This document shows, in pieces, positions 21,949-43,119 of a stretch of 64,000 nt of DNA. The notes under the pieces were generated by a model. That model did not search any database. It was not told the DNA's origin and was given only the letters and a program-made list of their open reading frames with translations. Position 1 is the first letter of the stretch; every line of letters begins with the position of its first letter. Both the position numbers and the translations under genes were made by a program. Location of the stretch: the sequence record DRR378314_1378; one strand, 5' to 3'.

Positions 21949-21958
21949 AAGCGCCCCG

Positions 21959-24065: not shown

Positions 24066-25797
24066 GATAGCCCCTTATTTGTTTGGTCACTTTGCGGCTA
24101 TTAACACGGGGAATACCACCCGCACCAGTGCTGGCTATCATCCATAAAATGGCTAAGCCACAGCTTAAATCGTAGTGATGGTTTGTTTGCTTCTCAGGCC
24201 AGTTTTCAAGCTCATCAAGAAGTAACCGACACCGTGAATGAAAGGCAATCTGTGCGGGTGTATTCGTTACATAAGTTTCTAATGAGCCTATACGTTCCTC
24301 AGCAGGTATGGTTGCTGTAACACCGCGTAACGGCAGTGCTATACCTTGCTCTAGGCCTGTGGTAATAAATTGGCTGCGCATAAAATCAAAGGCGTTGTTG
24401 TTTTCAAAGCCCCACACGCGGCAGTTATATTCTTTTTGCGCGCGTATTAAATCGTTTAATAAGCGGCTGGTACCACGCACTTTACGGCTTTCGTACTCAA
24501 CGTGTAGTTTTTGTAATTCATTGGAGTAAAAGCCCACTAATATTGCGCTGGGGTCGGCTTTTTCGGTTTTGCCCATACTTGGATCACATGCGCCGTAAGG
24601 TATCCATTCGTTTAAGCGATCAACCCAAAAATCAAACTGGTAAAATATGGCTTCTTCGTCGCTTTTGGCAATGCCTTGCATCTCGCGGTTAAACTCACGT
24701 TTATTAGCCGCCCACATACACATTAAATCGTAAAGCGAACGTACACTCGGCCAACTAGTCGTAGCACCCTTAAGCATTTGCTTTTTGCGCTTGATCCAAA
24801 ACTTAAACGACGGTTTTTGCTCTGTTGAAACCGCTTCACCTTTGGCTGCGGCACGTTTTTCAAAGCGTTTGTCGTCATGCACCATTAAATCGCGGCATTC
24901 TTCCCATAGGTCCATGCGTTCAGGCATTTGCTCGATGGCTTTAAAGCGGTGAACTATGTGCCCTGGTGCTTCTTCAGCACGGCTTATTGGGTCATCGTTG
25001 TTTAAAACTGTGTTTACCCCTAAGAATTTTACGGTGCCATCAGGTGGGCCAAGGTATTGCACGGCTGCTTCTAGAAAGCGCCAGCGGTTATCACGCTCAG
25101 TAGGCGATTTTGCCTCGGCATCGGTAATAATGTCATCGGATAGCAGTAGCTTAGGGCGGCTGGCACCATGGAACGTACCGCGTACAGATTGCTCAGCACC
25201 GCGGCTTTCAAAGCGCACACCTTGGGCTGTTACAAATTCGCCTAACTTCCAAACTGGGGATTTTTGACATACTTCAGGGAAGTCTAACGCCAAGTTATTA
25301 TTGTTAAGCAGTTCGGTCTTAACCACCTCGAGTGTTTTTGTTGGCATTTTGGTTTCAGCGCCAAACAAAATAATAAAGTCGATGAATTGGGTTATTTTGG
25401 CAAGGCCCAGGTCTTTGCATATATCAGGGTCTTGCAGTAGTGCTTGTACGGCGACATAAACGGGCGCTATTTTTACGCCAAGGGTACTTTTACCCTCACC
25501 ACGTGGGGCAACAAACCAGTTTTTCCAGCCGTTTTTTAGCTTAAGTGCTTCTGGGAACCAGTTCATAAAGTAGCTTTGGAATTCAGAGGCCTCTTGATCG
25601 TCATCAAGCCACATATGATGTGGAAAATACGTATACACAAAAAACTCAAAGTCGCCAGCTAGCACCCGTTTGCGGCGCTCTTTTACAGCTGCAGGGCTTG
25701 GGTCAATATTGCGCTCTTTGGCTTCAATATCACGGCGTAGTGAGCCGGTGATTTGTTCTATTTCAGCTAAGAACTTACGTGAATTCATATCGGCCAT
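24058..25797 (-). CDS. Terminase large subunit
   Basis: APRGEGKST, RPKLLLSDD and ACDPSMGK nuclease motifs. Confidence 0.9.
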   Translation of the reverse strand: MADMNSRKFLAEIEQITGSLRRDIEAKERNIDPSPAAVKERRKRVLAGDFEFFVYTYFPHHMWLDDDQEASEFQSYFMNWFPEALKLKNGWKNWFVAPRGEGKSTLGVKIAPVYVAVQALLQDPDICKDLGLAKITQFIDFIILFGAETKMPTKTLEVVKTELLNNNNLALDFPEVCQKSPVWKLGEFVTAQGVRFESRGAEQSVRGTFHGASRPKLLLSDDIITDAEAKSPTERDNRWRFLEAAVQYLGPPDGTVKFLGVNTVLNNDDPISRAEEAPGHIVHRFKAIEQMPERMDLWEECRDLMVHDDKRFEKRAAAKGEAVSTEQKPSFKFWIKRKKQMLKGATTSWPSVRSLYDLMCMWAANKREFNREMQGIAKSDEEAIFYQFDFWVDRLNEWIPYGACDPSMGKTEKADPSAILVGFYSNELQKLHVEYESRKVRGTSRLLNDLIRAQKEYNCRVWGFENNNAFDFMRSQFITTGLEQGIALPLRGVTATIPAEERIGSLETYVTNTPAQIAFHSRCRLLLDELENWPEKQTNHHYDLSCGLAILWMIASTGAGGIPRVNSRKVTKQIRGYHV

Positions 25798-26303
25798 TAG
25801 TCGCTTAACTCCTGATCGAGCTTAGGCGCAAAGGCCGTGAGTATTTCAACAAACTCAGGGGCAAAGTCTGGGTATTTGGTTGATACAAACTTAGCGAGTA
25901 TTTTAACGACCTCAGCAGCTATAGTGCGTTTTTCAAGGCGTTTATTACCACCTGATATCTTCATTACCTTGCTCATCATGTCGGTGAGTGAGCTGAGTAT
26001 TTTGGTACGTTGGTCAAGTGATAGCGCTGCACCTTCAGGCGATTTTAAAAGCTCAAAGGTTTCGTTAACTTGAATGGTGAATTCTTCAATAAAGTCGGTG
26101 GTAAACTCCCCTGCTGTGCCTTCACTGCGGCGGCTTGCTGCGCGGGCTAAATCCCAATCGTCGCCGTTGTCTTTAGCTTCCATTTTCCAGCGTCGTGCTG
26201 TGCCGTCGGCCACGCTGTGTTTTATGGCAGCCACACTTAACGCGAGCAGCTCGGTTACATAGCTGTGGCGTATAGCGTTTTTCTTTTCTGCAGGGTGCGC
26301 CAT
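25797..26303 (-). CDS. DUF1804-like terminase small subunit
   Basis: MAH... HTH and TARRWK...GDDWD.ARAA; directly upstream of the large subunit. Confidence 0.8.
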   Translation of the reverse strand: MAHPAEKKNAIRHSYVTELLALSVAAIKHSVADGTARRWKMEAKDNGDDWDLARAASRRSEGTAGEFTTDFIEEFTIQVNETFELLKSPEGAALSLDQRTKILSSLTDMMSKVMKISGGNKRLEKRTIAAEVVKILAKFVSTKYPDFAPEFVEILTAFAPKLDQELSD

Positions 26304-26641
26304 TAGTTCATCAACCCATTTTTTACAGCATAGGCTATCAGCGATACAGCTAAGCCCGCAGAGCCACCCATAGCAGCCACCTTAACGCGCTGGTTAGTGA
26401 GCTTTTCTTCAACCTTCGCTAAGCGCTCGTCTTGCTTATTAATGGCTGTGACTTGGCGTTTTTCGCTTTTTTCTATATCAATCTTTAAGCTATCTGTTAT
26501 TTCTTTTTGACGTGCTTCGCTTTTTTCAATGCTTTGGTGAATATCAGCTTTAATGTCTTTTAAGTCATTTAAAATAGCCGCCTGACTACCCTGTATTTCA
26601 CCGATGGCTTGAAATAATAAGTTTTCTTGTTCTTGATTCAT
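26303..26641 (-). CDS. Coiled-coil protein with C-terminal TM (lysis/packaging region)
   Basis: IGEIQG motif, coiled coil, hydrophobic tail. Confidence 0.55.
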   Translation of the reverse strand: MNQEQENLLFQAIGEIQGSQAAILNDLKDIKADIHQSIEKSEARQKEITDSLKIDIEKSEKRQVTAINKQDERLAKVEEKLTNQRVKVAAMGGSAGLAVSLIAYAVKNGLMN

Positions 26642-26650
26642 GGGTGGTCC

Positions 26651-27094
26651 TTACGGTTTAAATACTTTAATGCCCGTCCATGTAGGCGTGCGTACATCAA
26701 AATGAAACCAACTTACTTGCCCTTCAATGGCAGTGATGTAGGGGAATTCTTGCGGGTGGGCTAATACGTAATCACGAACTTGCTGAGCGGTGTAATTAGT
26801 AAAACTGCAATCGAATGCTTTACCTAGCTTGTGCTGGCTGCGTTTTGCGCCAATAGTGCAATCAAGTGGGCGATAGCCACGATATTGATTAGCGCCACCC
26901 CAGCTCCAGCTATTTACAGTGCATGGGCCAAATGTGTCGCGTAACTTTTGCAACATACGCAATGCGCGGTCATCAAATAGGTGGTTCAAAAACAAAGGGT
27001 CGTCTTTATAAAGCTCAAATATGGCTTTTGGTACTAATTCTTGAAACGTAAAGCTTGGGGCAGTCGGTACTACCACTTTTCTTTTAAGCGCCAT
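26651..27094 (-). CDS. Peptidase M15-type endolysin
   Basis: RGYR...SQHKLGKAFD...WFHFD zinc-peptidase motifs. Confidence 0.8.
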   Translation of the reverse strand: MALKRKVVVPTAPSFTFQELVPKAIFELYKDDPLFLNHLFDDRALRMLQKLRDTFGPCTVNSWSWGGANQYRGYRPLDCTIGAKRSQHKLGKAFDCSFTNYTAQQVRDYVLAHPQEFPYITAIEGQVSWFHFDVRTPTWTGIKVFKP

Positions 27095-27335
27095 GCTGCT
27101 GAGTCCTCATTTTAGTTAAATGTTGTTTTGTTAGGACGTAACAGGCAGGTAAGCGGGTATTACGCGCCGGCTTTTTGTTCGCTGGGTTTAGCAGCGATTT
27201 AACGCGGGTACGCAATGCGGGCAGGTCTTTTAGCGGGCAACGGCGAGAAATTGCTATTTGCTCGGCTTTAGAACTGGCCTTAATAATTTGTTGAGCTAAA
27301 AACTCAATAAATGGCGCATGCACTGTATTTGTCAT
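27084..27335 (-). CDS. Hypothetical protein (first gene of lysis/packaging operon)
   Basis: ORF overlapping the endolysin start. Confidence 0.5.
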   Translation of the reverse strand: MTNTVHAPFIEFLAQQIIKASSKAEQIAISRRCPLKDLPALRTRVKSLLNPANKKPARNTRLPACYVLTKQHLTKMRTQQHGA

Positions 27336-27458
27336 GCTGGTAGTAAATCAATTTAGGAGGTTGGGTAACACTGTAAAGTTGTTTGCGGCTAGGGCTTTCG
27401 GGCTGGTCTATTAGGTTAAATTAAAAAGGCTTGCATCTGCAAGCCATAAATAAAGAGA

Positions 27459-29114
27459 TTAACCTTCTAGTGCATTTAATGCAATTTCGATAGCATTTTC
27501 TAATTTGCTTAATGCTCCTTTGATTAATGATGGGGAGTACACTTTAGAGTGTTCCTGTACAAATTGGTAAATTCCCTTCAAAATATCACTTTCTTTGGAT
27601 AAATAATTATCAGCGCTGACAAACTTATACCTTTGATAAAGGTATTCACAAAAATACTCTATATCGTTATGGTTCCAATTTTTGATGCATTCCTCCCATT
27701 GCTCAATATTCAACTCTTGCAGGATTGGTGTCATTTGATAATTGGCATTACCATAAAGTTGTGATTCTTGAAAAGAGGACTTTAATGATTTAAATAACTC
27801 GTCATATTCACTCTTAACTTGTTTTTTCTGTATATCTTTTAAATATCGTTTTTCTATTTCTGCATATGGGCTATTTTCGATATTTAAGTTCATGTTCCCG
27901 CGAGATGAATAAAATTTCTTTTTATCAGCTAACGACTCTACTTTCTCGAATGTAATTTTATCGTTCTCAGGTATGTACATGTTTTTTACAAGATAATCGT
28001 AGTAATATAAGCATTGGAAAAACTTACTAACTTCAACTGAATGTGTAAGTAAAATGTACTTTTCAATTTTCCTTAAACCTTTGCTGAACTCGACATCACT
28101 TAATCTCGATATGTTATTGTACAGTAAGCTATCAAGCGGCGAATTATTCTTTGGGAGTTCATGTAAATTCAAAACATCAGATAGGTCTATATTTTTGCCT
28201 ACAATAAATTTAATAAAGCTTTTATTCAATTGAAGGGATTGCCTTAAACGTAAATTTAATTTTTCCTTATTATCAGTAATATCAAGCATTTCATGTATTT
28301 TCATATTTTCAATGTAATACTTTTTAGAAATCAACAAACCATCCCTTAAGAGCATTGTTTTTACTAAATCTAAGTTCACATTACTACCCATGTTACTCAA
28401 GTGTTCTAAAAGTTTATCAAGTCTCTTTAATGTTCGATTTAGAATGCGTAAGTTATAAAGATTGTACATGTTTATAAATATTTCTATATCAGCTTGTGAG
28501 TTAATTAGATGGTTCAATTTTGATTTTAGAATTTGATATAAATCAGCACTACTAGGGTCATAATTTATGGCTTCAGAGAATGTTTTTTCAATAAAGTATT
28601 TCTCAAGTTTGAGTTCTTTTTCATAAGTGACGAATAAAAATTTATTTTCACTTTGTGTAAGCCTCAAACATTCCCCAATAATATGTTTTTTTAAAGAAGA
28701 GCATTCGATACGCTCAATATCATCTATAATAAAAACTTCATCAGTAATGTTTTTCAGCATATAGTGTTTTGCAGCACCTGCAGAACCTTTAATAAAGCTA
28801 CTAATGATACTAGTGCCGCCAGTAGCTTTCTCTGCTGTAGTAAGTAGATGTGTTAGATGGGTTACCCCTTTTGTATCATGCTTTTCTTCTAAATATCTTT
28901 TTGCTATTAATAAATCTTTAAAGTCATCTAGTGATGTAATACCTAGTACCGATAGATATGTGATTTTATATTCGAATTTATTTTTGAGTTCAGTAGTCAA
29001 AAACTTTTCAACATAGTAAGTTTTACCAATGCCCCATTTACCAGTAAATATAATCATGGGTGGGTATGAGTCATCGTTGAATAAATCATTTATCTGAGTT
29101 GCGTAGTCTTGCAT
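27459..29114 (-). CDS. KAP-family P-loop NTPase (cargo)
   Basis: GKWGIGKT Walker A, YLSVLG and IIDDIERI Walker B; very AT-rich. Confidence 0.8.
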   Translation of the reverse strand: MQDYATQINDLFNDDSYPPMIIFTGKWGIGKTYYVEKFLTTELKNKFEYKITYLSVLGITSLDDFKDLLIAKRYLEEKHDTKGVTHLTHLLTTAEKATGGTSIISSFIKGSAGAAKHYMLKNITDEVFIIDDIERIECSSLKKHIIGECLRLTQSENKFLFVTYEKELKLEKYFIEKTFSEAINYDPSSADLYQILKSKLNHLINSQADIEIFINMYNLYNLRILNRTLKRLDKLLEHLSNMGSNVNLDLVKTMLLRDGLLISKKYYIENMKIHEMLDITDNKEKLNLRLRQSLQLNKSFIKFIVGKNIDLSDVLNLHELPKNNSPLDSLLYNNISRLSDVEFSKGLRKIEKYILLTHSVEVSKFFQCLYYYDYLVKNMYIPENDKITFEKVESLADKKKFYSSRGNMNLNIENSPYAEIEKRYLKDIQKKQVKSEYDELFKSLKSSFQESQLYGNANYQMTPILQELNIEQWEECIKNWNHNDIEYFCEYLYQRYKFVSADNYLSKESDILKGIYQFVQEHSKVYSPSLIKGALSKLENAIEIALNALEG

Positions 29115-29147
29115 ATGAAGTTCCTTTTTAATTTAATACAAACTATG

Positions 29148-29345
29148 TCAACTCCTATAACTTATCAAGACTTTATAAGCCTCCCTGTACTCATCCATTA
29201 AACCCGTTACATCTAACCCCATAACTTTTCGTTGGTTAATGTAACGGGAGAATAGGTTTAAACCGTATTCGTACTGCCACTGCTTTGGCTTTTTACCGCC
29301 GCTAAGTTGCAGCGCAGTGAGCAGTACAAAGTTATTGTTTTGCAT
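29148..29345 (-). CDS. Hypothetical phage protein
   Basis: Coupled to the upstream gene. Confidence 0.5.
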   Translation of the reverse strand: MQNNNFVLLTALQLSGGKKPKQWQYEYGLNLFSRYINQRKVMGLDVTGLMDEYREAYKVLISYRS

Positions 29346-29583
29346 GTTTATGCTTAGGGATGCTTTGAATTCTTACTTCATTACCGTCGGTAATACGGAT
29401 GAACTCAAACCAACAATGAATGCACACAGTGTGATCGTTATAAACCTCGCCTTCTGGTGGGCGCATGGTTTTTAAAGTGTTATCGCACTTAGGGCATTGG
29501 TAGTGAATAACCAACTTATTACGGGTTAATACACCTTTAAAAAATGCTTCGCATTCTGCTTTAATATCGCTTAACAGTTCCAT
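29332..29583 (-). CDS. Small zinc-finger protein
   Basis: CPKC...CIHC. Confidence 0.55.
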   Translation of the reverse strand: MELLSDIKAECEAFFKGVLTRNKLVIHYQCPKCDNTLKTMRPPEGEVYNDHTVCIHCWFEFIRITDGNEVRIQSIPKHKHAKQ

Positions 29584-29591
29584 ATTGCCCC

Positions 29592-29999
29592 CTACAAACT
29601 TAAATTTAATTGTGTTTCGTGCCCCTGTTCGTCTTGGTATGCACTGTAAATACTGCTTACTTGCTGGCGAGTGATCTTAAAACGCTTAACCAGCTGCTGA
29701 ATGTTGCTGCTTTTTGTGTCCAGGGCTTGGCAAATTTGTTGATTGCGAATTTGCATTAGCACCTTATGTAGCATGGGTATTTGATAGCTTGAGCCTACGT
29801 TTGCGTCTATTAGCTCTTGGACCAAGGCTTTACCAAATACTTTAACTACTTCGTGATCCTCCGTTGGCTTTTCAGGGATATAAAACATCTGCCCTTGTTG
29901 CTCGGTGAGTATCGCAATGGTTTTCTCAACCCCCAAGTGTTTAACTATGCGGCGCAGCCCATGGGGTAATGCTCGTAAATCTATGGTTGATTCGCTCAT
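29592..29999 (-). CDS. Mor/C-family transcription activator
   Basis: G..FYIP, RNQQI and a C-terminal HTH. Confidence 0.8.
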   Translation of the reverse strand: MSESTIDLRALPHGLRRIVKHLGVEKTIAILTEQQGQMFYIPEKPTEDHEVVKVFGKALVQELIDANVGSSYQIPMLHKVLMQIRNQQICQALDTKSSNIQQLVKRFKITRQQVSSIYSAYQDEQGHETQLNLSL

Positions 30000-30193
30000 G
30001 ATTGCTCCTCAAATAAATACTCTAAGCCGCTTTCACGCTCGATGCGGCGTTGCTCGTGGTAGTCTTCAACATTACGGCGTATGCGCCCTTTTTTAAGCGC
30101 AGTGGCTTTAACTGGGCGATAGCGTTCTTCCTCTGTATAAGGTGGCTTACGCGGGTTAATGGTAAAATTTTGATACTCTTCGTAATTAGCCAT
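29996..30193 (-). CDS. Hypothetical phage protein
   Basis: Coupled within the early operon. Confidence 0.5.
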   Translation of the reverse strand: MANYEEYQNFTINPRKPPYTEEERYRPVKATALKKGRIRRNVEDYHEQRRIERESGLEYLFEEQS

Positions 30194-30592
30194 TTACGCC
30201 CCCTGCTTTGTTTTATGACGCGCTAACCACTGCTTAAGTACTTCGATAATATGCGGCCATTGCTGTGCGCTTTGGCTGAGCTTTTTACCTTGTAAGTGCT
30301 TTTCACAAAACGAGTCGCATGCTTGTTTTGAATCGATACTTACCGCACCAGCGCGGCTTAACTGACCCCACAGGCTGTAAATCATTTTTAACTGAGCCGG
30401 TAACTGCTTTTTGCCTGCGTTTGGATTCATTGAACGGTAACGTGTAAGCAGCTGTTGTTGCTCAAGCTTGGTAAGCTTTACGCATGTATTAGTGCGGCCA
30501 TCACATATGTACGACACATTAAGTTGGTGGGTATCTTGGTCGATACCCGCCGCCTTTTGTGCAATTTTGATTTGTTGGATCAAGTTGCTCAC
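30194..30592 (-). CDS. gemA: GemA (Mu gp16 / DUF1018)-like protein
   Basis: IQQIKIA..., QLKMIYSLW and IIEVLKQW motifs. Confidence 0.8.
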   Translation of the reverse strand: MSNLIQQIKIAQKAAGIDQDTHQLNVSYICDGRTNTCVKLTKLEQQQLLTRYRSMNPNAGKKQLPAQLKMIYSLWGQLSRAGAVSIDSKQACDSFCEKHLQGKKLSQSAQQWPHIIEVLKQWLARHKTKQGA

Positions 30593-30948
30593 GCGCTTTC
30601 CTCCATTGGGGTTAGCTCAAAAGCCACAGCGGGCTTTAACGTGATGACCTTAATGCCCCAATCGACCATGCCATCAATAAATATACGCGCTAGGTTTGGG
30701 TGTAAGTTGTTAAAGCGAATAGCCAATTGCTCAGCCGATTTAACGCCTAAAACGTGCTGAATAGTGAATAGCTTTTCGGCTATCAGCATTGAGAACGCGG
30801 CTTTGATATTGCCGTTGCAGCTGTCGATAAACTCGCCAGAACCTTGTTTATCAGCAAGTACAGCCAGCATATGTTGGGTGCTTATGGTGTCGTTTACTGC
30901 TAAACGGGCGGTAAAACGTGGAGTGTTTAAATTAATTGAAAATGCCAT
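30589..30948 (-). CDS. Hypothetical phage protein
   Basis: AAGGA RBS; follows the MuB moiety. Confidence 0.55.
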   Translation of the reverse strand: MAFSINLNTPRFTARLAVNDTISTQHMLAVLADKQGSGEFIDSCNGNIKAAFSMLIAEKLFTIQHVLGVKSAEQLAIRFNNLHPNLARIFIDGMVDWGIKVITLKPAVAFELTPMEESA

Positions 30949-30961
30949 GATTAAATCCTTA

Positions 30962-30989
30962 TTTAAAATGTGTTTAAACAGCGTTTAAA
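30962..30989. repeat. TTTAAA array, 11-bp period
   Basis: TTTAAA at 30962, 30973, 30984; a partial unit at 30951. Confidence 0.75.
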
Positions 30990-33882
30990 CCGCTGGTTTA
31001 TTAAGTACTGATGAAAAAATGCCATTGACTAACAGCTTGTCTACGGCAGTGTCTGGGTTTTTGTTGGTGTGGTTAAGCAAATGCGGTAACAAGTTTTCAA
31101 CCAGCTCACGGGCGTTGCCCTCAACGCGTTTGTGCAGCCATTGCCACCACTTTGGATCGTTTTGGGCGAGTTTTACGGTGCCCTCGGTTAGCTCTAAAAA
31201 CAGAGTGCGAATGTCTTCAACTGTGATTTGGCCAATGGGTTTAGGCCAAAAGCACACGCGGCTTGCTATGAGTTCGTAACGCTCTTGGGTTTGCAGTTTG
31301 TCTACTAGTTGAATGTTGCCAACCAGGGTTACACCTACAATGGCTTGGTCGCTTATGGTACGCAGTGGGTCAAGCGAGTTAGGTTTGCACTTATCGGCTT
31401 CGTCTAAAATAATTAGGCGGTCTGTGTCACGCAGTGCGCTAATAATTTTTTGCATGTTTTTATAGGCACTTGGGCAGCGCGATAAGCCCAGGGCTGTGGT
31501 TAATTGTTCAAGCACTTGGGTGCTACTGGTTTGCTCGCTGCCGGCAATTAAAATGGCCTCTTTGTTATGGCGGCAATACTCCGCAATGCCTTTGGTTTTA
31601 CCCAACCCTGCTTGGCCTGCAAACACACTAAAACGTTTACGTTGTCGTGCTTGGTCGCAGGCCATAGCAATTAGCTTTGATGTGCTGGTAGGAATAAAGC
31701 GCACATCACCGTACACAATGCTTATTTGTTTACGCTCAGTAAGTTCACCGCCTGCTTTGCCTTGCTCAACCTCTGCAGGGCAAATAAGCGCCCAAATGTC
31801 GTGCAGGTGCTTGGTGGGCTTTGCGTTGTACTTGCCATTAATTAATTGGCTAATAGATGCAGGGCTTTTACCCATACTTACCGCAATGCTGGCGCTGGTA
31901 ATGTTTTGCTCGCGTATTTCGGGTGATTGTAAGCGCAAGCAAATACGCGCTGCGAGTTCACGGTCAGTTTTGTTATATGACTTATTAAAGCCGCTGCGTT
32001 TTTCAATCTCGGTGATGGCCGCTTCACCAAATAACTGGTGCCAAATTTGTGTAATGATTTTTTCAGGGTTGATGGTGCATTTGTTTGCCAGTACTTCTTT
32101 AACTGACTGCAATGCAAAGCCACAGTTTAGCTCCTCGGCGGTCATGCCTGTGATACTTAGCTCTTGGTTAATTAGCTCAACACGCAGGGTTTGCTCGGGC
32201 GTGTATGGGTGTGGTTGGCTATAGCTCATAAGTGTGTTCCTTGCGTAAATTGGGTTGTCTAATAATTCGTTTAGGTCGATATCGTGTTGTGGCTGTGCGG
32301 GTGTTACATCAAAATCAAAAATGTTTACCGGTGCCTCTTGTGCTGCAATACCTTTAATTGGTGCTGCAAACTTAGCCACTGAGTCAACATCGACAATGCG
32401 CTCTTGATTCTCTTGGGCTTCAATCTCACGGCGTTTGGTATCAATGCGTTTTAAGCGACCAGTGCGGCGCTTGCTTTCGGCTTGCTCAATGCGTGATGTA
32501 GGTACCGCGTGCGATTTAGTTTTTAAGTTAGCGAACATTAAAAACTCACCGTTTAGCTTATAAAGCTTGGTGTAGCTGTCGTCGTGTAGGTCGTAAGCGG
32601 CAACAAGCTCTTGGCCGTTAAACTGGTGTAAAAAGTCAGCTGAATAATCACGTTGATGTAAGCGAAAGCGGCCACGGCGAATATTGACGGTTTCGCGCGG
32701 TAGCATGACAAAGTCACCCTCTACTGGTGGTACGCGCTCGATGTTTTCGTCCCACACTTGTTGGCGGGTTTTGCCTTTTACCTCGGGGTGCTCGCTGTTG
32801 TGGTAGTCGTTTAAAAACGCTTTAAATTCGCCTATCCATTCGTCTACGCTTGGCAACTTACGTTTGCCTTGCTTGGCCTCTTTAAGTACCAGTTGTTTGT
32901 GGCGGTCGTCGTGGTCGCGCCCGCAATAGGTGCTAAAGCGTTTACCAACACGGTCTTCCATGTGTAAAAAGAATCGCTCTATCCACTTAACACGGGCATT
33001 GCCTGGTATGGCAAAAATTACGTCTATTTCAAACTGGGCATAAAAGCCAGTGGTGTCGTCGTTCATCAGTTTGTTTTTGTAGCCTGAGCCGTTATCAAGG
33101 TAAAACATGGCGGGTACGTTGTTATGCACTTTAATAGCGCGGCTTATTGCTGCTAGCGTATCGAGTGTGCTTTCGGCGTAGCCGAGTTCCCAGCCCACAA
33201 TGCAGCGACTTGCTACGTCTTGAAAGGCCGTTAATTCGGCGCGATAAGGCTTACCCGTTTTTGGGTGTGCTAGGTATACGTCGAGCGTGTGGCCATCGCC
33301 GTTATACATAACACCAGGCTTAATATTGTCGGTTGAGCGTAAAAGGTGGTCTTTATGTTTTTCACGGTAAAGTTTTGCCCCCATACGATACGGGCTTTGT
33401 GGGCCTAGCTCATGTGGCAGTGCATTTATAAAGCGGCGTACTTGGTGATGCTCTGCCTTGTAACCCTCTTTGTTTAGTTGGTCGGCTACTTGTGCAAAGC
33501 TTGGGCTATTAGGGCTGTGGTAAAGCTCAAGGCAGCGGGAAAGCCAGCTGTACTGTGTTTGTGCTTTGCCTTTGTGGTTGGGTAATAGGCCATTAATGCC
33601 ATTGTCTTTGTAAGCATTGCACCAGTTATACACGGTTGCACGCCCTGGTAATTTACCCAGTGCATCAATAGCGGTTGCAAGTGTGGCCATTGCTGTGTTT
33701 GCGCGGTACGCAGTAACCAGCGCTTCAAATGCCTTTTGTAAACCGCACTCTTGTATTAATAAGTGGCGAACTACCACTGCCCTACTTTGGGCTTTTTTAC
33801 GGGCTGTTTCGCTGGCGTTTTGCCAACTCAGCTCGTTACCTGTGCTGGGTAACTTATTGTATTTTTGAACTGCAGGATGCAT
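30985..33882 (-). CDS. MuA-like DDE transposase fused in frame to MuB-like AAA+ ATPase (965 aa)
   Basis: DDE motifs NGDGH, YLDNGSGY and WIERFF in residues 1-551; HTH, GQAGLGKT and LIILDEAD in residues 552-965; internal AAGGA-N8-ATG at 32229. Confidence 0.9.
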   Translation of the reverse strand: MHPAVQKYNKLPSTGNELSWQNASETARKKAQSRAVVVRHLLIQECGLQKAFEALVTAYRANTAMATLATAIDALGKLPGRATVYNWCNAYKDNGINGLLPNHKGKAQTQYSWLSRCLELYHSPNSPSFAQVADQLNKEGYKAEHHQVRRFINALPHELGPQSPYRMGAKLYREKHKDHLLRSTDNIKPGVMYNGDGHTLDVYLAHPKTGKPYRAELTAFQDVASRCIVGWELGYAESTLDTLAAISRAIKVHNNVPAMFYLDNGSGYKNKLMNDDTTGFYAQFEIDVIFAIPGNARVKWIERFFLHMEDRVGKRFSTYCGRDHDDRHKQLVLKEAKQGKRKLPSVDEWIGEFKAFLNDYHNSEHPEVKGKTRQQVWDENIERVPPVEGDFVMLPRETVNIRRGRFRLHQRDYSADFLHQFNGQELVAAYDLHDDSYTKLYKLNGEFLMFANLKTKSHAVPTSRIEQAESKRRTGRLKRIDTKRREIEAQENQERIVDVDSVAKFAAPIKGIAAQEAPVNIFDFDVTPAQPQHDIDLNELLDNPIYARNTLMSYSQPHPYTPEQTLRVELINQELSITGMTAEELNCGFALQSVKEVLANKCTINPEKIITQIWHQLFGEAAITEIEKRSGFNKSYNKTDRELAARICLRLQSPEIREQNITSASIAVSMGKSPASISQLINGKYNAKPTKHLHDIWALICPAEVEQGKAGGELTERKQISIVYGDVRFIPTSTSKLIAMACDQARQRKRFSVFAGQAGLGKTKGIAEYCRHNKEAILIAGSEQTSSTQVLEQLTTALGLSRCPSAYKNMQKIISALRDTDRLIILDEADKCKPNSLDPLRTISDQAIVGVTLVGNIQLVDKLQTQERYELIASRVCFWPKPIGQITVEDIRTLFLELTEGTVKLAQNDPKWWQWLHKRVEGNARELVENLLPHLLNHTNKNPDTAVDKLLVNGIFSSVLNKPAV

Positions 33883-33891
33883 TGCTCTCTC

Positions 33892-34797
33892 CTACTTGGT
33901 ATTAAAACGATCGTTGAACATGGCGAGCATGTATTCACGGTTTGCTTGGGCGTCTTGCCATTCGTCTTCGGCAAATTGTGGTATGCACTCAGCGCCGGCT
34001 AAATGCTCAGGGCCAAACTCGCCGCTTAACCGATTTAACATGTGGGTTATACGCTGTTGAATGGCTAGCCATAAATGCCATGTTGTTTGTGCTGCGCCTA
34101 TGCGGTGGTTTAGGTCTAGGTCGCGGGCGTTACAGAGCTGCTCTACCATGGCAATAAACTCTTCGAGCGACTCATTCACAACGGCATTATGTGCAAACGA
34201 TTTTTGGCGCACCTGTGCAACCAGCATAGGTAGCTCGTACATTTGCTTAGGGGCCTTGGTTAAGCGCTCGGTCTCTAGCGCATTAATGAGCGTGGCTGTT
34301 TGATCTTCAAGCTCGGTGTGCTTGTCTTTTAGCTTGCGAATTTCTTTACGGAACTCACGGACTGATAAGTCGTTAAGCGTGTCTAGGTCGTCGTCATCTA
34401 ACGATTCAACGGTTTCAACCGGTAAACGCGCCATTTCAATCAGCTTGCTTTTGTTCATGTTTAAAAGCGCCGACGTCGGCGCTTTTGACTCTGGCAGCGC
34501 TAAAAACATTTTTGCTACCGCGATGCTGCTTTGAGCTGAACGTGGTGCAATAGAGTATTCACGTAGCTTGCGTTCAAATTCACCGTGTGTTGAATGCATT
34601 TTGATGGATAAATAAATAAGCCCGCGCTTTGCGGTATCTACCAGCGCTTGCTCTTCCATACGCACAACCAGTTGCCATGCTTCGTCAACAGAATCTGGCA
34701 TTACAAGTTGTATGTGCCCTGCCATCTTCTCGATTTTGGCACTGAGTTGCTGCTGCTCTTCGGCAGAGAATGTTTGATCCATTAAATCAGTGCTCAT
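33892..34797 (-). CDS. DUF3102-like Mu-type phage protein
   Basis: G....IK....HGEF...APRSAQ motif; GGAGG RBS before ATG at 34797. Confidence 0.7.
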   Translation of the reverse strand: MSTDLMDQTFSAEEQQQLSAKIEKMAGHIQLVMPDSVDEAWQLVVRMEEQALVDTAKRGLIYLSIKMHSTHGEFERKLREYSIAPRSAQSSIAVAKMFLALPESKAPTSALLNMNKSKLIEMARLPVETVESLDDDDLDTLNDLSVREFRKEIRKLKDKHTELEDQTATLINALETERLTKAPKQMYELPMLVAQVRQKSFAHNAVVNESLEEFIAMVEQLCNARDLDLNHRIGAAQTTWHLWLAIQQRITHMLNRLSGEFGPEHLAGAECIPQFAEDEWQDAQANREYMLAMFNDRFNTK

Positions 34798-34915
34798 AAC
34801 GGCCTCCAACGGCGTTTATGCGGCTGGCTTTACAAAATGCAGACGGTTTTTGGTCTTTGAGTGTCATTGTTTTTAGCCTTATATGGGTTTTATATCGGGT
34901 GGTGTAATGGTGCTT

Positions 34916-35383
34916 TCAGTCTTGGTTATCGTTGTTGAGTAGCGACTCTGAAATATAACGCTGCATGGCGGTTCGCTCTTCTATCTCCATTTGCAGTTCG
35001 GCGTGTTGCTGTAACAGCTGAGAGCGTTGGTCAACGGCTTTAAACAAAATAGGTTTTAGTAGCACGTTGGCAGGCTCTGTTGAGCGCACGGCATAACACA
35101 GCGCTGGCAAATAATGCATTGGCATATAGTTGCTTTGACTTGGGGCTAACCATTTATTGAGTTTGGCTTGGTCTACATCGTTATTTTGAGCGCGGAGTGC
35201 ATCGTTCATGCGGTCAGCTATTACTGGGCGACTAAAGCCTGAACGCTTCATGGCTGAGCATACGCTGTGAATAAACAAGTGGTATATATCGCAATCAGGC
35301 GCTACGTCGGCATCTAAAATGCTTTTAGTGAGTTGTTTTTGCTGTGCCATTGTTAAATTTTCCATGGTAAAAATCTCTTGCAA
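34916..35383 (-). CDS. Putative DNA-binding phage regulatory protein
   Basis: SRPVIADRM...LNKWLAPS motif; located after ner. Confidence 0.55.
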   Translation of the reverse strand: MQEIFTMENLTMAQQKQLTKSILDADVAPDCDIYHLFIHSVCSAMKRSGFSRPVIADRMNDALRAQNNDVDQAKLNKWLAPSQSNYMPMHYLPALCYAVRSTEPANVLLKPILFKAVDQRSQLLQQHAELQMEIEERTAMQRYISESLLNNDNQD

Positions 35384-35417
35384 AATTACATTGATTTAAT
35401 ACGCGTGATTGCCGATG

Positions 35418-35684
35418 CTATTGCTCACTGGCTAGTAATTCGCGTAACGCTTGTACTTTTTTAGCACGACAATCTTTGTTTTTAATGTAGGCAGGTACAT
35501 CTGGGAAAATAACATCTACCGGTTTACCGATAATCTTGGCAATGGCAGCAGCCACTTTGTATGAGGTGGTATGTTGATAAACAACACTGCTAACATGCGA
35601 TAGGTTTAAACCTAGCGCAGTAGCAACAATTGACAGTGAATAGCCTTTTTCTTCAAGGGCTTGTTTAATTTGCTCTGGTTTCAT
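35418..35684 (-). CDS. ner: Ner-like HTH regulator
   Basis: MKPEQIKQALEEKGYSLS...IAKIIGKPV..IFP; divergent from the repressor. Confidence 0.8.
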   Translation of the reverse strand: MKPEQIKQALEEKGYSLSIVATALGLNLSHVSSVVYQHTTSYKVAAAIAKIIGKPVDVIFPDVPAYIKNKDCRAKKVQALRELLASEQ

Positions 35685-35769
35685 TGTAAAGTACCTTTTG
35701 GTTTACATTCTCTTTTCAGTTCTTTGGCGAGATAAAAAGAGAGTGTTTTTGTTAATGTGTGCCGAGTAT

Positions 35770-35894
35770 AGTTTCAATATATTGAAACTGTCAACGACAT
35801 AAACTCTAATTTTTAGCATTTCAATGTTCAATATATTGCACATTATTGATTTTGCTTGTAATTTAAATGGTTAAAAGTTTCAATAAATGAAAAC
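35770..35894. promoter_or_regulatory. Three repressor-operator palindromes
   Basis: AGTTTCAATATATTGAAACT (35770-35789, perfect), GTTCAATATATTGCAC (35826-35841), GTTTCAATAAATGAAAAC (35877-35894, overlaps repressor ATG). Confidence 0.75.
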
Positions 35895-36561
35895 TTTTTT
35901 GCGAGATGAACGTAACAGGCTAGGACTAACCCAAGCAGAAGCTTCTAAAGCGATTGGTGTTGGTAAAACTACTTTTCTACGTTGGGAGGCTGGATATCCT
36001 ATTCCTTCTGATAAATTAATAGCTTTATCTGATATTGGTTTTGATATTACTTATGTGCTTAAAGGCATAAAAACGGAACATCTACCAGTAAAAAAATCAT
36101 CCAGTACTCTTTTACAAACTGGGCACCCTGACTTAATTGCCGTACCTCAATATGATTTATCAGCCAGTGCTGGTGGTGGCGCATTAGTGGTAGCTGAGCA
36201 CCCTATTGCTCGTTTTGAACTGTCAAAGCGTTGGTTAGAACAACACAACTTACATAATAAGAAGTTAACCGTTGTTCCCGTTCGCGGTGATAGTATGGAA
36301 AACACACTTCACGATGGTGATTTAACGCTGGTTTCGTTGATAGATGATTTATCAGAAGCACGTGAAGGTGTCTGTGTTCTGCGCTTTGATGATGAGATTT
36401 TTGTAAAACGTATTCAGTACGATTTTAAAACTAAGGGCTATAAAGTCACTAGTGACAACAACGCATACTCTGGCTTTTTTGTTGATGTTGAAGATATAGA
36501 ATCTGGCAGGTTTACAGTGCTTGGCCGTGTAGAGCGAGTGCTGCAAAGGACAAAGGTTTAA
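35887..36561 (+). CDS. CI-like repressor (XRE HTH + S24 autopeptidase)
   Basis: HTH; ASAGGG cleavage site; GDSM and FVKR catalytic motifs. Confidence 0.92.
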   Translation: MKTFLRDERNRLGLTQAEASKAIGVGKTTFLRWEAGYPIPSDKLIALSDIGFDITYVLKGIKTEHLPVKKSSSTLLQTGHPDLIAVPQYDLSASAGGGALVVAEHPIARFELSKRWLEQHNLHNKKLTVVPVRGDSMENTLHDGDLTLVSLIDDLSEAREGVCVLRFDDEIFVKRIQYDFKTKGYKVTSDNNAYSGFFVDVEDIESGRFTVLGRVERVLQRTKV

Positions 36562-36594
36562 ATAGTAACGTACAAATTTTAATGGATTATATTT

Positions 36595-37260
36595 ATGCGA
36601 GTCTGGTTAGAAAAAAATAAAATATACTTTGATACTTTTGCACCTATATCATTAAGCATTGCAGCTCTTTTTGTAGCTATTGCATCTTACAAATTAGCTG
36701 ATCAGCAGCTAAAGCTATCTTCTTTGAATGCTAAACCTAACTTCTATTTAAAGGAAATCTCTTTATATGATCCAGTCGCAAAGCATGCGAATGAGACTGA
36801 GCTGAGAATATACAATTCAGGAGAAGAAATTAGTAATTTTAATAAAAATGTAAATTCAATAATTATAGTTGAACAGTATAAAGAAACAGAAAAGATTGTC
36901 TCTTATATACCAATAATTGGATACTATGATGTTAGTTTTAATTCTTCAGATCCAACTGGTGAATTATCGATTGTTAAAGGTCATAACAATAATGCTAAGT
37001 TTTTTGATGTTTATGTTGAATTCCAAAATTCTAAATTTAATGACAAGTATGGTTTTGTTTTCATATCTCTAAAACATTCAACTCAAATTACTTACACAAA
37101 TAAACTTGGAGAAGATGGCGAGTCATTCTTTATAGACACTTCTCCTGTTAGCTCTGTTGAATACCAAAAGTTTATGAGTAACTACAATGCCAGTGATCAT
37201 ATTAGGTTATATGATTTATCTTTAAGCGATATTGAAAATGTACTGCAAAGTAAAATATGA
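36595..37260 (+). CDS. Cargo protein with N-terminal TM, probably co-transcribed with the repressor
   Basis: Single hydrophobic helix; AT-rich. Confidence 0.6.
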   Translation: MRVWLEKNKIYFDTFAPISLSIAALFVAIASYKLADQQLKLSSLNAKPNFYLKEISLYDPVAKHANETELRIYNSGEEISNFNKNVNSIIIVEQYKETEKIVSYIPIIGYYDVSFNSSDPTGELSIVKGHNNNAKFFDVYVEFQNSKFNDKYGFVFISLKHSTQITYTNKLGEDGESFFIDTSPVSSVEYQKFMSNYNASDHIRLYDLSLSDIENVLQSKI

Positions 37261-37312
37261 TCTCTACAAATGGAACTGATTGGAACTCGCTTAAACACCA
37301 ACAGATTGAAAA

Positions 37313-38305
37313 CTACAGTTCGCTATTACTTTTTATCTGTCCGTACTTTATATAGCATTCACCTTTAAAGTCATCATATAAGTATTTGTTATCTTGACAT
37401 TTTTCAATTTGGCTTTGATCTATCCAAAAATTTATAATACTGATCAGATGAGATTGCCTCTCAAAAGAGAAGAAGTTGTGGTATTTCAAATAACCTTTAT
37501 CTAACAAACTTCGTTGCAATGCAAAAATATCAACTATCATTTCAAAAACAGTTGCTAACGGGAATTTAAAAATAGAATAATGTTTTATACCTATCGCATC
37601 ACAGATAGCTTTCAAAACGTCTTCAAAAATTAATAAAAGCACGATAATTTTTACTTTGTATGGATTGATTTGTGAACAAACTGCAGTGACAATTTTCTGG
37701 TCTTTATCATTAATAATGTGCTTAACTAATTCATATTTCATTTCATTCATATTTAGCCCCCTTGCAATGGTAAATACTTCTTTTTCAAAATTAATAAAAA
37801 AGGCAAATATGTATTCAACACGATTTTCGTCAACTTTATTATGAACATCATCTTTTGACTTAGGTTTAAGGTAGAAGCGGCAATATATAGATGTCGCATC
37901 ATTTGCCCTGATTAATTTGAACCCACCATTGTTAATCGCTGCTTCAAATTTTTCTTTAAAAAGTACAAGTTCTTTGTGGTAGAGATCTAATTTATGCTCA
38001 AATTCTTGCCTTTCCAAATTCCTTTTTTGATACTCTAAGTTTTCCTGAAATTGAATCGCTCTGAAATTCGCTGTTGCAAGTGTTGCCAGTGGAATTGATG
38101 AGCCCATAATCCATAATGGAACCGACATAAAAGTAAAAAAAGTCTCCAATGATTTTTTACTTGGCCACTCAAGTGATAAGTTATCGTTTTGCCATATGAA
38201 GCACATTAAGATAAAACTTGTAGCAATTGGTATTACAGTTGCTAACTTAAAGTATTTATAGTTGAACACACTTGGAGTTTTTACTTTTTGTTCGTCTTCA
38301 GGCAT
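37313..38305 (-). CDS. Cargo protein, two N-terminal TM helices plus soluble domain
   Basis: Hydrophobic segments then coiled coil; GGAG RBS; AT-rich. Confidence 0.6.
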   Translation of the reverse strand: MPEDEQKVKTPSVFNYKYFKLATVIPIATSFILMCFIWQNDNLSLEWPSKKSLETFFTFMSVPLWIMGSSIPLATLATANFRAIQFQENLEYQKRNLERQEFEHKLDLYHKELVLFKEKFEAAINNGGFKLIRANDATSIYCRFYLKPKSKDDVHNKVDENRVEYIFAFFINFEKEVFTIARGLNMNEMKYELVKHIINDKDQKIVTAVCSQINPYKVKIIVLLLIFEDVLKAICDAIGIKHYSIFKFPLATVFEMIVDIFALQRSLLDKGYLKYHNFFSFERQSHLISIINFWIDQSQIEKCQDNKYLYDDFKGECYIKYGQIKSNSEL

Positions 38306-38478
38306 GGTAGTTCTCTCCTTGATAGTTCGAAGAAAATATCAGATAGCACACATATGTAAAGTGTTTTACTCTACCAACATATTAGGGTGTGTTTTATTTT
38401 GTTAATAATTTGTTCAGTTTGGTTCTATATAAAGAGTTTTTGTACTACAGTGAGGTTTCCAAAACTAGAGGGAACTTT

Positions 38479-39429
38479 ATGAAAGTACGTATTATGGGAT
38501 TTACTATTGATCCTACCGAAAAGCCTAGCCTAAATCATTTAATGACAAATATTGAATCAAATTTTATCGACACCAATAAAAATGATGAAAAAAGAGGTGG
38601 TCGTTTACTTTTTGTTGATACTGAATCATATAACGACTATTACGTTGGCTTAGTTATTACAGCTAAAGACGCTAAAACGTATTGCCAGTTAAAGCAGGAT
38701 GCAAATGGCGCAATGAAACTAGTTGTATCTGATCTTGATCCTGATTCGAGCTTGATGGAGTTTAACTTTTTTGTTGTTAAAAAAGATAATGGTGTGGGCC
38801 TTTATCAGCATTATCATCAGTCTTGCAGTATGAATGGTGCGATGAAGCTGCTTAATCAACGTTTCAATATAGTACATCAGCAAAAAGTTGATGAAGCTAA
38901 AAAGCAATATATTCAGAATGAGAAGCTCTCTAAAAAGAAGGCAACTACTAAAGCTAATAAAGAACATCATGACCGCTTTAAATGGCAAATGCTTGTTAGT
39001 GAAGAAAAGCTAAACATAATTCTTGCTCACATGAAGCGAATTAAAGCGTTAGAATTAAACTTTTCGACTTTAGAGGCTGAGGCCGATGAATTTAGAGTGT
39101 TAAAAGATCACTTGGTAAAAAATACTCAACGCTTTCTTTTTAGTCAGCAATCAAAATTCAGTGATTTGGTTAACAATGTCATAACATGCGTAAATGATTC
39201 AAATGCTGATTCTGGTCGTGTTATTGCTGTCGATATTAACGATAATGAGCAAACATTTGATATTTCAGAAAACTTAGATATTTTTGGTGTGTATGACTTT
39301 GATGATGTCACTAAAGAGATTGACTTATTAGACATCGATGATTTTGCAAGTAGCTGGATGATTGAAGAGTTAATTAATATTTGTGAAGATCGTTCAGAGT
39401 ACTTTAAAGCTAAACTTAAGATAAAATAG
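38479..39429 (+). CDS. Soluble cargo protein, partner of the downstream TM protein (RexA/DUF4747-like architecture)
   Basis: GAGG RBS before ATG at 38479; 11-bp gap to the next gene. Confidence 0.55.
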   Translation: MKVRIMGFTIDPTEKPSLNHLMTNIESNFIDTNKNDEKRGGRLLFVDTESYNDYYVGLVITAKDAKTYCQLKQDANGAMKLVVSDLDPDSSLMEFNFFVVKKDNGVGLYQHYHQSCSMNGAMKLLNQRFNIVHQQKVDEAKKQYIQNEKLSKKKATTKANKEHHDRFKWQMLVSEEKLNIILAHMKRIKALELNFSTLEAEADEFRVLKDHLVKNTQRFLFSQQSKFSDLVNNVITCVNDSNADSGRVIAVDINDNEQTFDISENLDIFGVYDFDDVTKEIDLLDIDDFASSWMIEELINICEDRSEYFKAKLKIK

Positions 39430-39440
39430 AGGAACAAACT

Positions 39441-40052
39441 ATGGCTGGCATAAAGGTTCTACGCTACTGCTTAGTGTTTTCTTCCCTTATAATTGCGATT
39501 ATTTTTTGTTCTACTATTTGCTTAGATTTAGATCCAAATAAAGTGGTTAATTTTTATCAAATAAATATACGTAATAGTTTGTTTACTGGTTTTTTAACTC
39601 TTGGAGGTTTTTTACTCTCGCTAAAAACATTTATTATTGTTAAGTTGAAAGAAAATGTTTACGACCATGATGAATATGAAAGCCGTTTTAAAGAACAAAG
39701 TAAGCATAATACTAAATTGGTATTTTATGCACCGCTCAAAAACCTTAGTGACTTTTTATTTTGGACTGTAGTTAGCTGTATCAGTGCAGCTATAGCACAA
39801 CTAACACTCGGTTTATTTAACTGTTTTTATACAGCCTTGATTGCCATCTTCTTGGCAATATTTGCTGTTTGTGTGCTTATGTATTCGTTGTATCTTATCA
39901 AGCTATGTTTAGATGATTGGTTTGAATTTTTAAATATAGCAAGGGCAGTTAAGCAAATAAAGGAAGAAGAGGAAGAGAAGAAAAAAGAAAGAAAAAAACT
40001 CCGTTCCAAACTCTTCTATGCAAATTCTAAGGTATATAAAGCCCCTAAATAG
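39441..40052 (+). CDS. Four-TM cargo membrane protein
   Basis: Four hydrophobic helices; GAGGA RBS; charged C-terminal tail. Confidence 0.6.
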   Translation: MAGIKVLRYCLVFSSLIIAIIFCSTICLDLDPNKVVNFYQINIRNSLFTGFLTLGGFLLSLKTFIIVKLKENVYDHDEYESRFKEQSKHNTKLVFYAPLKNLSDFLFWTVVSCISAAIAQLTLGLFNCFYTALIAIFLAIFAVCVLMYSLYLIKLCLDDWFEFLNIARAVKQIKEEEEEKKKERKKLRSKLFYANSKVYKAPK

Positions 40053-40062
40053 GGGCTTTTTT
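40038..40062 (+). terminator. Intrinsic terminator
   Basis: AAAGCCCCTA-A-ATAGGGGCTTTTTT. Confidence 0.8.
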
Positions 40063-40150
40063 GTTTAAGGAAGTGATTTTATGCAAATTCCTGTAAGCGA
40101 TTTTAAGCACCTTACTTTGTTTTAGGCTACATTGCCTTGAGTGCAGACCG

Positions 40151-40209
40151 TTTAAACACGCTCAGTTTAATTTAAACACGGTTTAAATATGGTTTAACTT
40201 GGATTTAAA
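40151..40209. repeat. TTTAAA array, 11-bp period (near prophage centre)
   Basis: TTTAA(A/C) at 40171, 40182, 40193, 40204; an extra copy at 40151. Confidence 0.8.
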
Positions 40210-40210
40210 G

Positions 40211-40591
40211 TTATGGTTTAGTGTTTTGGTGGTTAAGCCATGTTTTATGAAATTGTTGCTTGGTGGGCTTGAACTCTAAATATAGATCGTTAGACATAGT
40301 AAGGTTGTTATTAAGCGTTAGCCGAATGTACTCAGACTCCGTTATAATTTGATCAGCATAAGCTTGGTTTACAGCATCTAAAAAGTCTGTGCTTGGGTTT
40401 GATTCTAATTTATTGGTAAGTGCTGCATATAATTGCGGCATTGCTTCGTCGGGGTTTGATGATAGGTATTTATCTGGGTTGTTGTAATAGACATAGGCAG
40501 CTATACCAATACAGTGCAAAACGATGGCTGCTGCGATAACCCAAAGTAGTTTATTAAATTTTTTTAGATATGTTTGTTTGATCATAACCAT
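40211..40591 (-). CDS. Hypothetical protein with N-terminal TM
   Basis: ORF with AAGGA RBS. Confidence 0.5.
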   Translation of the reverse strand: MVMIKQTYLKKFNKLLWVIAAAIVLHCIGIAAYVYYNNPDKYLSSNPDEAMPQLYAALTNKLESNPSTDFLDAVNQAYADQIITESEYIRLTLNNNLTMSNDLYLEFKPTKQQFHKTWLNHQNTKP

Positions 40592-40679
40592 TCCTTGGTG
40601 ATTTTGTATTTATTGAATATAGTTGTTAACAAATAAAGTTCAACTTAAATGAACCGAACAAATACTAAAGAGATATCAA

Positions 40680-41390: not shown

Positions 41391-41450
41391 ATATTCCTTG
41401 CAGTGTGATTGATACCCGCTTAGCCTATATACGTTACCCCATTCCTCCCG

Positions 41451-41497
41451 CTGTAAAGTCTTTTCCAGCGGTTCAATAATTACTCCCCGCATACACT
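41451..41497 (+). promoter_or_regulatory. Putative activator-dependent late promoter (head operon)
   Basis: CTGTAAA-N4-TTTCCAGC-N22-TACACT; same spacing as 51352-51398. Confidence 0.65.
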
Positions 41498-41532
41498 GGG
41501 TGCCACTTAGTTAGTTTATTGGCACTTGGAAC

Positions 41533-42678: not shown

Positions 42679-42682
42679 AACC

Positions 42683-43078: not shown

Positions 43079-43119
43079 CGCGCTTGGATTAACTTAAATT
43101 TATAAAGTGAGGATTTGCC

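Follow-up and report, generated by a model that had tools for sequence, protein, structure and literature searches.

A probable one-base deletion joins the transposase and MuB-like genes of a Mu-type prophage beside dif

In the 64,000-nucleotide stretch of sequence record DRR378314_1378 (the window, meaning the whole stretch that was analysed), the transposase gene A of a Mu-type prophage runs without a stop into the gene for its partner B, a MuB-like ATPase, so that the two form one open reading frame (ORF). We consider it very probable that this fused A–B ORF is a frameshift allele produced by a one-base deletion, a recent and unselected accident in a resident prophage. By comparison with its relatives, the fusion looks like a strain-specific mutation in a Pseudoalteromonas-type bacterium and not a natural design. 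The features on which this reading depends are listed here, with lengths in amino acids (aa) or nucleotides (nt).

30985..33882, minus strand: fused A–B ORF; 965 codons without a stop, composed of A residues 1–542, nine frame-shifted residues and B residues 1–414, then a stop.
32257..33882, minus strand: native part of the Mu-type transposase A, residues 1–542, with HTH_32, the rve core and Mu-transpos_C; 93–97% identical to 554-aa stand-alone relatives.
32256..32258, minus strand: site of the 1-nt deletion, GAC-AAC in the window against GAT/GAC CAA in relatives, 27 nt before the B ATG.
32230..32256, minus strand: linker of nine codons in the B frame (NPIYARNTL), standing in for the last 12 native A residues.
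32238..32242, minus strand: Shine-Dalgarno-like AAGGA with an 8-nt spacer to the B ATG; AAGGAA is kept in six of six aligned sequences.
32219..32257, minus strand: ghost of the native A C-terminus, out of frame, reading QPNLRKEHTYEL; it includes the ancestral stop TAG at 32221-32219 and an 11-nt overlap with the B start.
30985..32229, minus strand: MuB-like gene B, 414 aa from the ATG at 32229; an N-terminal extension of ~90 aa, then a putative helix-turn-helix (HTH), then the AAA+ domain; the closest stand-alone protein, also of 414 aa, has 96% identity across 100% of the length.

Domains and junction of the fused frame

The frame is open over 2.9 kb, and an earlier note on this DNA, which had read A and B as one ORF divided into 551 and 414 aa, was right on both counts. 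Chance does not account for an open frame of this length that carries two strong family matches. PHROG 310 ('transposase') matches residues 16–506 of the fused protein (E 1.5e-101), and PHROG 296 ('DNA transposition protein') matches residues 656–959 (E 6.9e-42). Pfam places HTH_32 at residues 83–151, rve at 214–295 (33.3 bits, cut-off 32.6), Mu-transpos_C at 390–449 (49.7 bits, cut-off 21.7), HTH_3 at 656–689 (25.2 bits in the fused protein with a cut-off of 23, and 19.5 bits in B alone) and AAA_22 at 747–862 in the B half (51.7 bits). The transposase residues D196, D263 and E302/E309 are present in the window and invariant in 31 of 31 aligned relatives. The B half contains a Walker A motif, GQAGLGKT (residues 756–763 of the fused protein), and a Walker B motif, ILDEAD (residues 825–830). 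In a phmmer search of the PDB, the solved structure of Mu MuB (8xvb) matched residues 658–863 (E 3.8e-11), with the alignment beginning at MuB residue 16; no PDB chain matched the A half at E ≤ 0.01, and MuB was the only match to the fused protein. By these domain matches it is confirmed that A, a Mu-type DDE transposase, and B, an AAA+ protein of the MuB type with a putative HTH, are joined in a real ORF.

The junction reads AAC CCA ATT TAC GCA AGG AAC ACA CTT ATG AGC, with the B ATG at 32229-32227; the letters quoted in the earlier note, together with its AAGGA and its ATG position, agree exactly with the window. We aligned the DNA of the window with five close Pseudoalteromonas loci (L001-L004 and L006), giving six sequences. 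The alignment has a single gap, found in the window only (GA-CAACCC versus GAT/GAC CAACCC). In all five close loci the A stop lies 11 nt past the B ATG (ATGAGCTATAG or ...TAA) and B is in the +1 frame of A, the end of A (...ACT TAT GAG CTA TAG) being laid over the start of B (ATG AGC TAT AGC). The A protein of the relatives ends in ...QPNLRKETTYEL followed by the stop TAG; the 554-aa relatives end ...ELLDQPNLRKETTYEL where the window reads ...ELLDNPIYARNTLMSYSQ. Translated one base out of register, the window gives QPNLRKEHTYEL and then a stop, matching the C-terminus of the relatives, and the native end of A therefore persists out of frame. It follows from the one-base gap at 32256-32258 that A enters the B frame nine codons ahead of the B start. 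In many of the 31 relatives the last 12 residues of A differ or are missing, and the conserved tail motifs precede D542 and are retained. Since the lost residues are poorly conserved, the main change to the protein would be the covalent link and not the missing tail.

Every relative examined has two genes, which leaves the natural fusion proposed in the earlier note, one that tethers the target selector to the transposase, without comparative support. A protein word-index search of 5.8 billion clustered proteins, with lengths restricted to 530–1689 aa, gave 64 matches, none of them fused; all are stand-alone A proteins of 533–716 aa that cover no more than 59% of the query, with 554-aa Pseudoalteromonas proteins the closest at 93–97% identity. 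No fused form appears among the best 150 of 3640 HMMER matches in 1.84 billion representatives (144 A-only and 6 B-only). Stand-alone B is the norm, with 37 matches of 401–432 aa, the best of them being the 414-aa protein listed above. Homologues occur in 20 of 140 Pseudoalteromonas species genomes, and we counted the 18 loci that have both genes, leaving out G084 (fragmented) and G046 (only part of B). None of these 18 loci is fused: each has a stop that ends A no more than 23 nt from the B ATG. The A/B overlap is 11 nt in six loci, 8 nt in six, 4 nt in two, 1 nt in one and 23 nt in one, and the remaining two have TAA and then an in-frame ATG. The earlier note had itself named a stop or frameshift at the junction in all close relatives as evidence against a natural fusion, and this is what the close relatives have. 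A limited search of the open-access literature found no natural MuA-MuB, TnsB-TnsC or other transposase-AAA+ single chain.

The two loci with an in-frame ATG belong to another clade (L059 in G008 and L061 in G019), where A and B share one frame and TAA is followed directly by ATG. A fusion by loss of a stop, as the earlier note imagined, could arise in that clade and in Burkholderia phage KS10 (L024).

State of the prophage and origin of the fusion

The fused ORF lies within a prophage that is otherwise well kept.

19534..63977: whole Mu-like prophage, 44,444 bp, with ends 5'-TGTAAGGGG... and ...GGCTTACA-3'.
19529..19533, plus strand: left target-site duplication ATAGC, 5 bp, perfect.
63978..63982, plus strand: right target-site duplication ATAGC, 5 bp, perfect.

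The termini are of the TG...CA type (TGTAAG/CTTACA) with short terminal inverted repeats, and the same ends are found in five genus genomes (G001-G005). The minus arm carries a Ner-like gene, A–B, Mor, endolysin, terminase, portal and Mu-F, and the plus arm carries the repressor, head and tail genes, tail terminator, tape measure and a 2391-aa fibre. The repressor/Ner, Mor, Mu F, portal and terminase genes are thus all present, and the Phage_Mu_F match scores 72.2 bits. Judged by its transposase, MuB-like ATPase, TG...CA ends, 5-bp duplication and late genes, the element is a Mu-type transposable phage. Prophages of its kind are common in Pseudoalteromonas; as a phage the element is without a close isolate relative, and 12 kb of the window (28000-40000) gave no megablast match among 50,697 phage records.

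The prophage is colinear with those of G001 and G005 at 84–90% identity, and all of its ORFs except A–B are full length when compared with the orthologues in these two genomes. In G005 a 311-aa head-region gene is split to 157 aa, and in G001 the tape measure has 527 aa versus 982 and DUF6950 has 71 aa versus 136; the window copies of all three are intact. The deletion is the only visible lesion of a well-kept prophage, and the full-length ORFs and intact target duplication make it point to a recent event. The same state fits a recent origin and leaves room for a fusion that is tolerated. We infer that the deletion arose recently and without selection.

The evidence on whether the deletion is real consists of run contigs and not raw reads. 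Run X1, which may be the source of the assembly, holds every sampled word of the region, and a separately built X1 contig equals the window with no differences and no gaps over 1101 bases at a mean word depth of 121.8. One extra base ('G put in behind 32256') is present in all three non-source run contigs (X2, X22 and X3, 95–99% alike), none of which has the fused form; these runs are a viral metagenome (X2), a marine metagenome and another organism. Because the X1 contig reproduces the deletion at a depth of about 122, a real mutation appears likelier than an error. We regard it as unlikely that the deletion is a sequencing or assembly artefact, with the extra base present in the true DNA and A and B separate as in the relatives. 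Such an artefact would explain why only one genome differs, and by a single base; the sole run that displays the deletion may be source data, with no library type on record, and if the ancestral sequence was GACCAA, which is what L003 and the three run contigs have, the loss would be of one C from a CC pair, a small homopolymer. The separate X1 assembly nonetheless agrees with the window, the context AGACAACCC has no long homopolymer, and the other prophage ORFs in the window have no frame break, though error-prone data would give them. Several observations do weigh against a recent accident. X1 may be the window's own data set, which makes a systematic platform error formally conceivable. The exact fused and B sequences are absent from a collection of 15 billion proteins in an exact look-up. 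Nothing else in the prophage has decayed and the window copy is, if anything, better kept than those of G001 and G005, which fits a still-active element with a working fusion protein equally well. Finally, in the portion of PMC11292022 that bears on this point, a GFP-MuB fusion forms filaments, and a bulky partner is thus not necessarily inactivating.

The last two observations are also what a selected natural fusion would draw on, in which the lineage gains from a tethered ATPase and still makes free B from the internal start. Both moieties are complete, the linker takes the place of just 12 A residues, which are poorly conserved, B keeps its native start signal, and the rest of the prophage is undamaged and has a clean 5-bp target duplication. 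We nevertheless find such a fusion distinctly unlikely, as the form is unique (none in 18 genus loci, 64 word-index matches, the best 150 representatives or the three non-source contigs), the nearest relatives at 93–97% identity are unfused, and the linker is out-of-frame A sequence with no sign of adaptation. The earlier note had offered mutation as its other explanation, and here it was right about the cause but not about the mechanism, which it took to be a lost stop and which the alignment places at the 1-nt deletion at 32256-32258. In its version TAC at 32247-32245 derives from TAA or TAG, from which it is one substitution away, and elsewhere A and B are indeed in frame and parted by one stop (TAA-ATG in G008 and G019, and gp16/gp17 of KS10). 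In the lineage of the window, however, A and B are in different frames, and the same TTTAC occurs in four of five close relatives, where it is read in the A frame as AAT TTA CGC and supplies Leu-Arg codons of A. The true A stop TAG is still at 32221-32219, out of frame. With this TAG persisting and TTTAC common to four of five relatives, we rejected TAC as a decayed stop, and the loss of a stop there seems to us next to impossible. Programmed recoding is extremely unlikely as well. It would have the lineage normally make some A–B protein by +1 ribosomal frameshifting, which the window then hard-wires. IS3-family transposons do make a fusion transposase in this manner, by a programmed ribosomal shift between overlapping OrfA and OrfB in different frames that is needed for active transposase, and tight A/B overlaps of 1–23 nt are kept in 16 of the 18 loci. 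But A is complete without frameshifting in the relatives, the overlaps vary by clade in length (11, 8, 4, 1, 23 and 0 nt) and in sequence, unlike a conserved signal, no slippery motif was seen, none having been looked for, and the fused peptide is not on record. A one-base deletion in a pair of overlapping genes remains the reading that we prefer.

If the deletion is as we describe, a transcript would start in the early promoter region downstream of the Ner-like gene, judging from the layout. Ribosomes translating A would pass into the B frame nine codons early, miss the A stop and go on to translate all of B. One predicted product is a chain of ~106 kDa, A(1-542)-NPIYARNTL-B(1-414), without only the poorly conserved last 12 residues of A. 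The other is free B of ~46 kDa, made by de novo initiation at the native AAGGA-N8-ATG. The earlier note's suggestion that this internal AAGGA-ATG is usable for free B is plausible, as it is the native B start, is kept in six of six aligned sequences and is where the stand-alone 414-aa B proteins start. Free B is probably still made from it, at a level probably below that in relatives because termination-reinitiation coupling at the A stop is lost. No free A would be made.

A covalent tether of B to each A protomer would, we expect, perturb transposition more than it helps. The C-terminus of A in Mu transiently contacts B, stimulates its ATPase and dismantles B filaments, and in Tn7 and CRISPR-associated transposons (CAST) the tail of TnsB is a flexibly linked hook for TnsC, as described in part of PMC9371665. 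Since the contact between tail and ATPase is transient in Mu, Tn7 and CAST, a permanently attached B might, by analogy, disturb target capture and immunity. The fusion may be active, though our guess is that this is less likely than not. When B was modelled in complex with the native tail of A (P0001, residues 480-554), the prediction scored 0.48 and a control 0.34; this gave no answer and was not used.

Insertion beside dif and neighbouring elements

The left end of the prophage lies close to a dif-like sequence, and a related motif lies near its right end.

19484..19511, plus strand: dif-like 28-mer with XerD arm TTATGTTAAAT, 22 nt from the left end of the prophage; a hybrid copy left by a neighbouring PM2-like prophage.
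63909-63922, minus strand: inverted XerD-arm-like motif ATTATGTTAAATAG, ~55 nt inside the right terminus; kept in G001, G003, G005 and G038.

The left-end motif was found in 29 of the 140 genus genomes. In 12 of these 29, and in the window, a XerD arm lies 18–66 nt upstream of the left end on the same strand and in the same orientation, and in the other 17 the left end is elsewhere; in G045 it lies 338 nt from the dif XerD arm, and with G045 counted the lineage is found next to dif in 13 genomes besides the window. The dif-side loci are L025, L026, L030, L031, L043, L044, L046-L048, L050, L051, L014 and L099. The 15-mer TATATTATGTTAAAT corresponds to the central region and XerD arm of E. coli dif as given in the relevant part of PMC2731167, and its exact copy is unique in each of G001, G003, G004 and G005. 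In G005 dif is at 1,579,822 of 3,439,009 bases; the first 2.5 kb of G005 contig 1 contain no ORF of at least 150 aa, and the origin was not placed there.

The target duplications differ, being ATAGC in the window, ATTAC in G003, TTAGT in G004 and, only if the left end there has 3 extra nt, CTAAT in G001. G002 is flanked by a 25-bp direct repeat (L031/L088) and G005 by an inverted pair. The host flanks are 69–76% identical whereas the prophages are 84–90% identical. Vertical inheritance of one ancient dif-side insertion was considered and rejected on these grounds, namely the differing target duplications and dif-to-end spacers and the divergence of the flanks relative to the prophages. From the duplications and the flanks the insertions look independent, and they look like separate arrivals in one dif-side hot spot in one orientation. 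A looser pattern, XerD arm-N15-45-TGTAAG, was found in 14 of 401 genomes family-wide and was uninformative, with control matches similar in number.

Putting the 5-bp duplication and the dif-side positions together, we rate as possible, at slightly below an even balance, a broader proposal. It states that the lineage transposes with a 5-bp duplication yet prefers sites ~20-340 bp from dif on its XerD side and always turns the gpF-side end towards dif, and that the A–B chain there is a natural tethered transposase-selector variant that may still be active. The site selector could be the unusually long B with its putative tandem HTH, or A, or host XerD/FtsK at dif. The inverted XerD-arm-like motif might tie end recognition to Xer proteins. 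A limited search of the open-access literature found no Mu-like phage that targets dif.

Other insertions display features of their own. The inverted XerD-arm-like motif is kept in G038, though the G038 prophage is not at dif. Three prophages that are not at dif, L034 (G032), L040 (G040) and L042 (G046), lie 9-12 nt downstream of a common 11-6-11 imperfect palindrome of the type ATGTCCAATAC-TAGACG-GTATCGGACAT, which may be a second hot spot resembling a recombinase site. Signs of repeated insertion were seen in three genomes: G002 has its 25-bp repeat, in G022 (L086) right and left ends abut with 5 nt (GTTAA) between them, and in G001 (L092) a degenerate second left end and a Mu-F gene fragment lie ~100 nt past the right end. 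The contig from X2, labelled a viral metagenome, is 95–99% alike and gives a weak hint that relatives form particles.

Two further genes of the prophage, and the element on its left, are as follows.

27459-29114, minus strand: P-loop protein, 551 aa, between the lysis genes and Mor; GKWGIGKT motif, PHROG 4740, no Pfam match.
52979-60154, plus strand: tail-fibre-like protein, 2391 aa, with collagen-repeat and fibronectin type III matches.
6567-19511: PM2-like corticovirus prophage, 12.9 kb, integrated at dif.

G005 lacks the P-loop protein and the G001 version has only 51% identity, so that the gene is variable cargo, possibly for defence. The C-terminal half of the fibre is strongly divergent among relatives. 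The PM2-like prophage encodes a transglycosylase (9440-9910), a major capsid protein (12885-13694), a HerA-like ATPase (14168-15001) and a rolling-circle Rep protein (16128-18038) that matches Phage_GPA with 392 bits. Across 100% of its length the capsid protein has 44.6% identity to PM2 P2, and it shares 66.5% identity with the capsid protein of phage GXT1010. Dif-like direct repeats of 24 nt, at 6577-6600 and 19494-19517, contain TATATTATGTTAAAT and bound the prophage, placed on this basis at 6595-19483; G001 and G005 lack the element. In Vibrio, too, tailless prophages occur at dif, according to the corresponding part of PMC11630473.

Comparison with known systems and meaning of the fusion

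The element resembles Mu in having an A with rve and Mu-transpos_C, a B that matches MuB (8xvb) with Walker A and B motifs and lies directly downstream of A, TG...CA ends, a 5-bp target duplication, and Mor, Mu-F, portal and terminase genes. It differs in that B has 414 aa versus 312 aa in Mu, with ~90 extra N-terminal residues, in a layout that is divergent around the repressor, and in the joining of A and B into one ORF in the window strain. Mu inserts almost anywhere, with a near-random choice of site, whereas the lineage of the window clusters beside dif and does not follow such a choice. Phage KS10 is the best isolate-phage match: one tblastn piece spans 97% of the fused query at 31.3% identity, and the KS10 repressor is likewise divergently transcribed upstream. 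The similarity is distant, however, and in KS10 gp16 (transposase) and gp17 (DNA transposition protein) are in frame and parted by a stop and 9 nt. Compared with the OrfA-OrfB fusion of the IS3 family, the shift in the window comes from a deletion in the DNA of a single strain, and A needs no fusion to be complete. TnsB-TnsC of Tn7 and CAST and IstA-IstB of IS21 have the same division of labour between a transposase and an AAA+ protein, with a flexible C-terminal transposase tail that contacts the AAA+ partner, as set out in part of PMC9371665, but the two are separate polypeptides.

On the sequence comparisons made here, the fused ORF represents a mutant allele rather than a novel architecture. 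It serves as a warning that a gene fusion seen in a single genome can be misread as a design when the two genes overlap out of frame. At the same time the allele is a natural construct, a near-full A joined by a 9-aa linker to a full B, which lets the tolerance of transposase-AAA+ tethering be asked. The question bears on Mu and on Tn7/CAST, where the contact between tail and ATPase is only transient in the account given by part of PMC9371665. We regard the dif-side clustering as a more valuable outcome than the fused ORF itself. If true, dif-side targeting would be a pathway not described for transposable phages within our limited literature search, and if confirmed, these insertions would allow direct tests of how transposable phages choose their targets and of a possible link to Xer/FtsK.

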